A stretch of 63,805 bases of DNA, filler included, from Sluysia triapertura (lineage: Eukaryota), in NCBI GenBank assembly GCA_046118255.1. It is 5 parts of 5 records of this genome, joined end to end, with 100 filler letters (N's around TTAATTAATTAA, not from the genome) between each part and the next. Parts side by side here need not be neighbours in the genome. Positions count along the whole stretch, not along the records: positions 36,364 to 48,941 come from JBJNIA010097329.1; 4 more parts are not named here. The stretch is one strand, 5' to 3'. Below are positions 36,364-38,286 of the stretch, one piece after another (the stretch's first letter is position 1; each line of letters starts with the position of its first letter). Below the pieces are notes generated by a model that ran no database searches, was not told where the DNA came from, and worked only from the letters and a program-made list of their open reading frames with translations. Both the position numbers and the translations under genes were made by a program.

Positions 36364-36924
36364 GCCTTCGAACACGCAATTGGAATACCGATATAAAATT
36401 TGAACGGTTACGTGAAGAAGCCAGTATGCAAATGGTAAAGGAAACTCCGAAAGATACATGGACGAATTTATGTTTTAATTTACACTGTTTGTTTATTCAT
36501 TTGATGTTGTTATTATATATTTTACTTTTCGAATTAATACATCCTGTACTTTGTAGTAGATTCATAATGTTTTTATTGTTAGTTAATTCGGACCTTAAGC
36601 CCTTTTCGATAAATTTTAAAGTTAAATTAATTAGTTGTTTTGGTTTAATAATTTTTAATTTTTTAAAACAAAAAAATATAATGTAAAGGAAACGACTAAA
36701 CCGTTAAGAAGAATCAAATTGTTCATGACGCTCTCAACACTTTATGCTCCTTTTTACTGCAATTTTATATGTAGAAAGTAAAAGAATATAAAGAAAAAAT
36801 CTTGTTAAAGAATTTTCAGAAATTTATGCGGTTTTCAATAATAACAACAATAATTTTATCATTTTTTATTATTATTATTGTTATTATTATTATTTTTATC
36901 GCTGTTATTATTATTCTTGTCAAC

Positions 36925-37185
36925 ACCTAAATATAAAAATTAAAATAAATAAAATTCAATAATTGCCGTTTAAACTGGTTGCTGCCATCACCAACGATGA
37001 CAGCCTATGTACATTTTCATTATGCTGTCAACGTTTATGACGGTCAGTAATCAGTCATCAACATTTTAATAATTTTAATTTTGACTAACACACCACCCAA
37101 TCAGAGTCATCACTCTTTATTTCATTAATTACTAACCTGATTGGGTGGATTAAAAATAGAAAACAAAAGTCACACAATTAAAGAG
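36925..37185 (+). promoter_or_regulatory. TATA-like motif plus double-hairpin cassette (copy A)
   Basis: TATAAA at 36932; ~31-bp stem 36974-37055; perfect 12-bp inverted repeat CCACCCAATCAG/CTGATTGGGTGG at 37093-37148. Homologous to 55564-55810. Confidence 0.65.
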
Positions 37186-37340
37186 TAGTATCAAAAAAAT
37201 TTATTGACAACAGAGAAAACAGTTTAAAAATTTTTAGAGGAGTCAAAAATAAAGAAATAATCAATAAGAAACTAGACAGTTGAAAATTTATAGACAACAG
37301 AGCATTGAAAATTAAATTTTCTTTGTACTTAAAAGTTGAA

Positions 37341-38286
37341 ATGAATCAAGATTCTACTACACTGTGTATTAATATCGATGTAAAATTAATGCTATTTTCA
37401 ACACATATCCTAACAGGCGTTTTATGTCGTTCTAATCATTATGTTATGATAATTGATACAGAACAAAAAGATGAAGAATTTTCTCAATTATTACAAGGTA
37501 TTGATAGAGTTAAAAATGTTAACAATTTTACAATTATTTCAAGAACCAAAGATTTTAAAGCGTACATTTCGAACTTATCAAAGAAGTTATCTCAAGAATT
37601 AATTAACCTAATATTGTTTTTATATAAACCTATCCATTCTTGTTTAAACCAACTTTCAAGATTAATGTAAACGATTGGAATCTATTCGAACTAAAACACA
37701 AATTGTTAAAATCACTAATACCAAGTAAGTGGGCCCACTTTCCAAAATCTCTATGGTCTAATAATTACAATTATGGTAAATACGTTATGATTCCGGTTTG
37801 TGTTAGACATGAAAATAATTTTATATCATTCAGAATGAATGTTAATAATCAATTTTCAGTTTTAGTATATTATCATGAAGGAAATGAGTCTAGTTTAATG
37901 CGATGTATATTATACTCAAATGTGACACCAAAAATGAGTTCAATTGATTCGATAATCAAATTATTGCGACGTCGGTGTGAATTGACGGATTTAAGATTAA
38001 AACACCAACGCTAGGAGATAGACATGTCAAGAGATATAATTTGATATATGATAAAGTCGGAAGTATGATGACAGAACTTTACAAATTAATCGAATCTCCT
38101 ACTCTTTTGGTCTTTTTAGATTGTGTTTGGGAGATGTTACATATATACTCAATTTCATATGAAGTAAATGAAACAATTTTTAGAAATGTTACAAGATACA
38201 CTTATAATTGGGAATATGCTGCAGATATGCTAAAAGAAGAAAAATCGATAAAAATGCTTTGCCTGAACATAAAGTATGAATCATAA
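37341..38286 (+). pseudogene. Myotubularin-related (MTMR9-like) diverged, internally deleted, frameshifted copy
   Basis: GVLCRSNHYVMI...DEEFSQL...ID...TIISRTKDFK resembles the MTMR9 PH-GRAM (GTLCLTGHHLIL...EELWLL...ID...TIIIKCKDFR). YPFLFKPTF..NDWNLF resembles YPFFYRPMF..DGWHSF. FSVLVYYHEGNESSLMRC resembles FPVLSYYH..NG..IMRS. ESPTLLVFLDCVWEMLHIYSISYEVNE resembles [27 protein letters not shown]. Confidence 0.78.

Follow-up and report, generated by a model that had tools for sequence, protein, structure and literature searches.

Two regions of the DNA studied here carry a similar block, consisting of a TATA motif and two hairpins, in front of two different gene-like sequences. This raises the question of whether the block is a mobile unit in its own right or a part of something larger, and of what it does there.

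The window and the sequencing data

The window, by which we mean the whole stretch of 63,805 nucleotides that was analyzed, has a G+C content of about 24% and is a series of short contigs with N spacers between them. Copy A of the block lies on the contig that begins at 36364, and copy B on the contig that extends from 49042 to the window end. Reading of the open reading frames revealed transposon remnants as well as a GPCR and a ubiquitin-protease gene split into exons, and the window can thus be assigned to an animal genome; by its composition and by precedent, one may guess at a flatworm.

The depth values given below come from one public sequencing run that matches the window and that possibly derives from the source sample, such that it should not be considered as independent support. 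Seven of the eight pieces listed match contigs of this run with 0–1 differences at a depth of 9–21 (median 16.5), which we used as the single-copy level. When contigs were aligned to the window at 80% likeness, 1,443 were placed on element A (570 of them less than 90% alike) and 7,339 on the 10 kb around B (2,732 of them less than 90% alike). The summed contig depth serves for ranking only and should not be read as a copy number; low-complexity blocks possibly inflate it.

A homologous cassette in two contigs

The features that precede the hairpins are as follows.

36735–36920 (+): pre-TATA block common with B, followed by a TAA/TTA tract (alignment)
36925–36960 (+): TATA motif (TATAAA at 36932–36937) and initiator-like TCAAT (36956–36960), a predicted core promoter with similar spacing in B
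55391–55597 (+): pre-TATA block of B, TAA/TTA tract, TATA motif (55564–55575) and TCAAT (55593–55597) (alignment and motif scan)

The cassette of A (36735–37185) is homologous to that of B (55391–55815). Comparison of 36964–37080 with 55587–55704 by blastn gave 75.8% identity (E 3e-13), and the alignment from the TATA motif to hairpin 2 scored 140, as compared with a maximum of 53 among 790 background windows, so that the homology stated in the initial annotation is far beyond chance. The pre-TATA block of A (36735–36835) aligned with a score of 51, which was reached in none of 100 shuffles. Homology between A and B covers only the hairpins and roughly 200 bp upstream of the TATA box, and ends at ACA (37176 in A, 55806 in B). 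On neither strand did the upstream parts of A and B align better than shuffled sequence, and no homology was found between the 3′ parts of A and B.

The motif ACC(T)AAATATAAA, which had been reported for both copies, was indeed located at 36925 in A and at 55564 in B. TCAAT follows TATAAA by 18 or 17 nt in the two copies, although the spacer sequence has diverged; in the window, 9 of 311 TATAAA sites have a TCAAT-type partner 17–18 nt later.

A covariance model search of the window yielded no third copy of hairpin 1, and a scan of viral contigs with the cassette pattern gave 0 matches. The 33 pattern matches obtained in metagenome contigs were set aside as chance, as none had the hairpin or a profile match under E 0.7. 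A candidate at 33914–33927 on the minus strand was likewise rejected as a cassette copy, since it is not accompanied by the hairpins and its similarity is marginal (65 and 15 of the 790 background windows score as high). Here an exact ACACCAAATATAAA is preceded by a TAA tract and a G-poor stretch, and the site possibly marks a different repeat family that has this TATA motif as well.

Structure of the two hairpins

Each copy carries two hairpins downstream of the predicted core promoter.

36974–37055 (+): hairpin 1 of A, with a stem of about 35 bp, an invariant base and a variable upper part; UGU at 37008–37010, CNNC at 37059–37062
55598–55679 (+): hairpin 1 of B; UGU at 55631–55633, CNNC at 55685–55688
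37093–37148 (unstranded): hairpin 2 of A, with 12-bp perfect inverted arms (37093–37104 and 37137–37148) and a CCAAT box in each
55721–55774 (unstranded): hairpin 2 of B, with 11-bp perfect inverted arms (55721–55731 and 55764–55774) and CCAAT boxes

The plus strand of hairpin 1 folds better than its shuffles, with z scores of -7.0 (A) and -3.5 (B). All 27 of 27 consensus pairs are intact in both copies, three of them having changed on both sides and three on one side. The claim that the sequences diverged while pairing was kept is thus borne out for the pairing itself, while the covariation is not significant with two sequences, as 57 of 500 shuffles score as high. Two G:U pairs in hairpin 1 are common to A and B and four more are found in one copy only, which favors plus-strand RNA as the folded form. 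This preference had been proposed for the cassette, yet it does not extend to hairpin 2, where, in both copies, folding favors the minus over the plus strand (-24.1 vs -20.4 kcal/mol in A and -25.9 vs -18.5 kcal/mol in B). The minus-strand preference of hairpin 2 should be considered weak, since copy A differs from most contigs at its minus-strand G:U position.

The arm sequences of hairpin 2 differ between A and B, while each pair of arms is perfectly complementary. A scan of the 64-kb window for perfect inverted repeats with arms of at least 11 bp, at least 4 G+C and a loop of up to 45 nt returned the two hairpin 2 stems and no others.

Hairpin 1 also has the geometry of a pri-miRNA. According to the available parts of the sources, pri-miRNA geometry follows distances of 13 nt, 22 nt and 16–18 nt (PMC6004053), the pri-miRNA stem has 35 bp and Drosha cleaves stem-loops of mRNA as well (PMC10954719). 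If cleavage is assumed at 13 nt above the stem base, the UGU of hairpin 1 is at nt 21 and the CNNC at +17 (A) and +18 (B), with background rates in the window of 2.3% and 5.3%; it should be noted that we chose this register ourselves and that copies A and B are not independent. The likeness to a canonical pri-miRNA, as these sources partly describe it, thus concerns the stem length, the apical UGU and the CNNC position. Hairpin 1 differs from it in that its arms diverge on a fixed base, its basal UG is displaced by 2 nt from the canonical position, it belongs to a high-copy repeat and no Rfam family reaches the cut-off. The Rfam family mir-192 weakly matches hairpin 1 of A (23 bits, with a cut-off of 54) and does not match that of B. 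As judged from the two sequences, an invariant base with variable arms is the pattern of a scaffold rather than that of one conserved microRNA.

In the Rfam scan of the window, only two tRNA-like copies reached the cut-off of any family, and scans by E-value returned only generic hairpins. Readings of the cassette as a hammerhead, SECIS, H/ACA or Pol III box were considered by eye and discarded, as the respective motifs are wanting in both copies.

Extent and ends of the two elements

The DNA on both sides of the cassettes is also repeated, and the parts that could be delimited are listed here.

36364–36734 (+): upstream part of element A, clipped by the contig start, multi-copy with a depth of 500–2,000 and unrelated to the sequence upstream in B
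38509–39120 (+): multi-copy 3′ part of element A; single-copy depth from about 39120 on (depth)
54648–55390 (+): C/A-rich, G-poor (G 4%) upstream part of element B, U3-like, with a putative left end TGTAGTG at 54648 (depth and joints)
57475–58880 (+): multi-copy 3′ part of element B, with the right end between about 58650 and 58880 (depth)
24560–24643 (+): third copy of the C/A-rich upstream part, clipped by the contig end (83% over 84 bp to 54728–54810, E 5e-17)

In element A, the depth is 29,036 on hairpin 1 and 10,263 in the following bin (37029–37123, hairpin 2), 400–6,100 over the myotubularin-like frames and 170–720 over the 3′ part, and only 26 beyond 39119. Where the stem of hairpin 1 of A begins, some contigs depart from the alignment. 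In element B, the depth rises from 90 immediately before the element to 20,536 and 58,196 in the C/A-rich part; it amounts to 4,609 in the bin of the cassette, 490–1,020 over the cargo frames and 200–570 over the 3′ part, and only 29 beyond 58884. The ranking, in which the cassette core exceeds the cargo and the cargo exceeds single-copy DNA, extends over three orders of magnitude. A separate block upstream of cassette A (36570–36615), which has no counterpart in B, shows the peak depth of element A (44,553 in bin 36554–36648).

The left end of B was placed at 54645–54648 and is good to a few bases, as a single-copy contig stops at 54674 and joints recur at 54648 and 54653. The repeat thus has a sharp start about 0.9 kb before the TATA box and about 750 bp upstream of the block homologous to A. 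GTTACA, found near the ends of both A and B, was rejected as an end marker because the motif is too common.

As DNA both upstream and downstream of them is multi-copy, the cassette and the cargo are parts of larger repeats, of which the 450-bp cassette is the conserved core. The initial annotation had viewed the cassette as a mobile promoter and leader module that captures or expresses gene copies. A promoter and leader of a mobile element would agree with the equal spacing of TATA and TCAAT, the structured 5′ region and the very high repeat depth. The data do not support a 450-bp cassette that moves on its own and captures or precedes host genes, since the flanks are multi-copy on both sides and the cargos are borne by the elements.

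Cargo of the two elements

Both elements carry broken, multi-copy reading frames downstream of the hairpins.

37341–38508 (+): broken, intronless myotubularin-like cargo of A (Pfam PF06602), with frame changes at about 37630–37670 and 37980–38015 and a stop at 38284–38286
55932–57474 (+): broken multi-copy reading frame(s) of B, in pieces at 55864–56133, 56156–56929, 56794–57087 and 57118–57474 (depth 490–1,020)

Cargo A consists of four pieces in changing frames, and its first ATG lies 193 nt after hairpin 2. Two of the pieces match Pfam PF06602 (Myotub-related), with E values of 7e-4 and 1.9e-6. One piece scores 27.5 bits, with a cut-off of 25, and another 19 bits. The matched segments correspond to positions 2–100 and 299–344 of PF06602 and are only 185 nt apart, so that the middle of the phosphatase domain (101–298) is absent and there is no space for introns. 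The missing part presumably holds the catalytic loop, and the product of cargo A would then be inactive. Of the description of this cargo as MTMR9-like, the myotubularin-like family was confirmed and the subtype was not, the best relatives in the PDB being MTMR2, MTMR8 and MTMR1 (E 0.009–0.03).

For cargo B, the broken frames comprise 89, 257, 97 and 118 codons. It had been described as ECT2-like, and a short likeness to the DH-domain motif can be seen by eye. The databases did not sustain this identity, as no DH domain match was obtained in Pfam, the PDB, the Atlas or the representative set, although an extremely divergent domain may have escaped these searches. In Pfam, cargo B has no RhoGEF, BRCT or PH family match, and in the PDB none of these was matched by the 89-, 257- and 118-codon pieces that were searched there. 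The 257-codon piece gave 0 matches among 1.84 billion representatives and only sub-0.8 scores in the Atlas. The predicted models were too poor (pLDDT 38 and 41) and fold searches with them returned nothing.

Among the best-supported differences inside the frames, taken from 40 of 382 differences for A and 40 of 879 for B, third codon positions account for 14 of 27 in cargo A (P 0.036) and for 2 of 14 in cargo B, where there is no enrichment. Coding constraint is accordingly only hinted at by these substitutions, and for cargo A alone. Searches of protein databases and scans of viral-contig proteins yielded no relatives for either cargo.

The cassette as a proposed promoter and leader of LTR-type retroelements

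Element B starts with a TG-type end, which is followed by 0.9 kb of low-complexity DNA, TATA, an initiator, two stem-loops and an intronless gene copy. By analogy, this is likely the layout of an LTR in which U3 varies while a structured R-U5 or leader is conserved. The repeat reaches upstream of the predicted start, which excludes a simple retrocopy or SINE. The left end TGTAGTG agrees in 6 of 7 letters with the LTR terminus TGTTRNR and equally with that of CsRN1, TGTGGYG, and U3 is described as less conserved than R and U5, with conservation of a long R accompanying stem-loops (PMC3601003, from the part of the text available).

We therefore favor, at about even chances, the reading of the cassette as the conserved promoter and R-U5 leader of diverged LTR-type retroelement families that carry different accessory genes. 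RNA polymerase II would start at TCAAT, some 25 nt downstream of the TATA box, and hairpin 1 would be the first structure of the RNA, kept for a function in cis such as control of the TAR or R-region type and possibly cleavage by Microprocessor. Hairpin 2 would be either a second leader structure or a pair of NF-Y sites. Reverse transcription may have brought in the cargo as a copy of host mRNA, and its translation would begin at the first AUG downstream of the hairpins. With the core retained and U3 and cargo changing from family to family, the pattern seen between A and B would result, and the core would outnumber each cargo because it is common to many families and to solo termini.

Several marks of such elements were searched for and should be considered when referring to this reading. 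Between the hairpins and the cargo, neither copy has a CA followed within 4 nt by TGG, as would be expected for a primer-binding site, and no second LTR was found in either contig (12–15 kb each), for which solo or truncated copies are possible explanations. Candidates for a target duplication of B, CA/ATCT (the slash marks the boundary) at 58574, 58793 and 58983, are at chance level and none is unique. There is no polypurine tract in either unit, and 0 of 104 translated pieces match gag, RT, RNase H or integrase in Pfam, in a scan that covered mainly ORFs of 52 aa or more. Elements A and B fade into single-copy DNA 2–3 kb after the cassette. Truncated 5′ ends, 3–4 kb solo termini with a gene inside and non-LTR units are all candidate readings of them, and we assigned the element to no family.

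A non-autonomous, gene-capturing DNA element, Helitron-like or part of a Polinton/Maverick, with the cassette as its internal promoter module, seems to us unlikely. Such a reading would agree with bounded units of 3–4 kb that have no second LTR, and the boundaries of B can be read in the Helitron manner as A/TC at 54645 and CTAG/T at 58854, but no G+C-rich hairpin precedes this CTAG and there is no CTRR/T at the end of A. What we take, from its motifs, to be a heavily decayed Polinton/Maverick-type integrase (53490–54400, +) ends about 250 bp before B at a depth of 350–1,000 that resembles cargo B. This piece has no Pfam match and no relative in viral contigs, however, the stretch between it and B is near single-copy, and neither A nor B has the terminal inverted repeat of a TIR element or Polinton. 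Cargo A is moreover intronless, and the plus-strand G:U pairs of hairpin 1 point to selection on RNA. In another reading, hairpin 1 would chiefly be a microRNA precursor carried by a transposon, with arms specific to each family, and hairpin 2 an inverted NF-Y (CCAAT) pair driving the cargo from a second start. The stem of about 35 bp, the UGU at nt 21 and the CNNC at +17/+18 match the published positions (PMC6004053 and PMC10954719, in their available parts), the basal stem is invariant under a variable upper stem, A has its weak mir-192 match and hairpin 2 lacks a plus-strand preference. Against this stand the basal UG, 2 nt off, the register, which was our choice, the lack of a mir-192 match in B and a 5′ flank of only 3 nt in B if transcription starts at TCAAT; NF-Y sites alone would, in addition, not require arms of 11–12 bp to stay complementary despite divergence. 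We regard this as quite unlikely to be the main account, although it is not exclusive of an LTR leader and the two could hold together.

That A and B have only the cassette in common, in otherwise unrelated flanking DNA, and that hairpin 1 of A is far deeper than its neighbors, with contigs leaving the alignment at its base, could also be explained by a small mobile module of 450 bp that inserts before, or captures, different gene copies. We find this improbable, as no TIR or TSD was seen at the block edges, the multi-copy flanks are continuous with the cassette on both sides and a simpler account is that U3 and internal parts diverged faster from family to family. An even less probable variant would restrict the LTR of B to 54648–55595 (TG...CA, 948 bp), turning the TATA-like motif into a poly(A) signal and hairpin 1 into a primer site or a Tf1-like self-priming duplex. 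The sole CA-N(0-4)-TGG before cargo B is at the base of hairpin 1 (55594) and the depth peaks over 54650–55550. To our knowledge, the sequence after this TGG complements no eukaryotic tRNA 3′ end; it is also not complementary to the tRNA-like copies of the window, which formed the comparison set for primer sites. LTR elements with self-priming do exist (PMC4600332), and a TATA motif may double as a poly(A) signal (PMC3601003), as stated in the accessible portions of these sources. The short LTR would, nonetheless, leave no space for U5, and A has no CA at the matching place.

Returning to the promoter and R-U5 leader, a wider form of this reading, which we consider rather unlikely, would be a superfamily of animal mobile elements in which many families are built on one promoter and a Microprocessor-type hairpin scaffold, with swapped arms and a swapped captured gene, possibly as 3–4 kb units without gag-pol. 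Each family would then combine its own small RNA with its own protein of host origin, for instance a myotubularin without catalytic activity.

Relation to known systems

The closest precedents are the Burro and GYPSM1 elements, giant gypsy-like LTR retroelements that are likewise abundant repeats in AT-rich animal genomes (PMC6431247, PMC13465017 and PMC8532177, each in part). As far as these sources go, Burro and GYPSM1 bear host-derived regulatory domains, some in upstream accessory ORFs, and decayed copies with stops and frameshifts are known, as here; planarian Burro elements in particular carry host-derived domains and accessory ORFs upstream of the polyprotein (PMC6431247). The Burro cargo named in the available text comprises BIR, RING, MATH, BCL2, ankyrin and other domains and not myotubularin, and no common double-hairpin leader is described there. 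In contrast to Burro and GYPSM1, A and B are without gag-pol, env, a second LTR and a primer site. Burro is, moreover, planarian, and the precedent may not apply to the host of A and B. A figure of Grohme 2018 is said to include a myotubularin-like domain among the Burro accessory domains; if so, cargo A would already be known and the leader alone would be new. Our literature search found no description of such a common leader, within a coverage that did not extend to two key Burro papers and their supplements.

The cassette also resembles LTR R-region stem-loops of the HIV TAR type, with which it has in common TATA, an initiator and a stem-loop right after the predicted start, and with which B has in common the TG start and a variable, low-complexity U3 (PMC3601003, in the part available). 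It differs from them in its longer stem (about 35 bp) and Microprocessor-like motifs; a conserved AATAAA could not be established downstream of the hairpins, and no 3′ LTR end was found.

Helitrons and Pack-MULEs are bounded non-autonomous units with varied captured gene pieces and a common terminal module. A and B resemble them as bounded units with different gene pieces and a common module, but have no diagnostic ends, carry an intronless cargo and show an RNA-type pairing bias in hairpin 1.

If the LTR reading is true, the cassette would be a cis-element that spans families of cargo-carrying retroelements, one covariance model would list all families and captured genes in the genome, and how elements acquire and express host signalling genes could be tested directly. 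If Microprocessor cuts hairpin 1, small-RNA output or self-attenuation would be coupled to cargo expression. Planarian Burro1 is reported to help stem-cell survival via a captured IAP region (PMC13465017, in part), which makes a second cargo type and a leader of specialist interest.

Other observations in the window

The two tRNA-like copies, at 35117–35291 and 40292–40472 on the minus strand, are 85% alike over 182 bp including the 5′ flank, have an odd anticodon arm and are probably a tRNA-derived repeat. Another dispersed repeat pair (33405–33607 on the minus strand and 45026–45191 on the plus strand) is 69% alike, and high-depth repeats at 50200–50533 and 59886–60200 (8,948 and 4,694) flank the B region. 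We also take 58710–58800, near the right end of B, to be a possible Tc1-like scrap, and 2967–3296, inside the ubiquitin-protease gene, to be a mariner-like transposase remnant. A further gene piece carried by an element could be the short RING-finger frame at 29797–30153 (+), in which no introns are visible and for which the Pfam match, with an E of about 1e-3, is below the cut-off. The GPCR at 12674–13876 (+) is a single-exon member of the rhodopsin family, the nearest relatives of which are only 37–43% identical.
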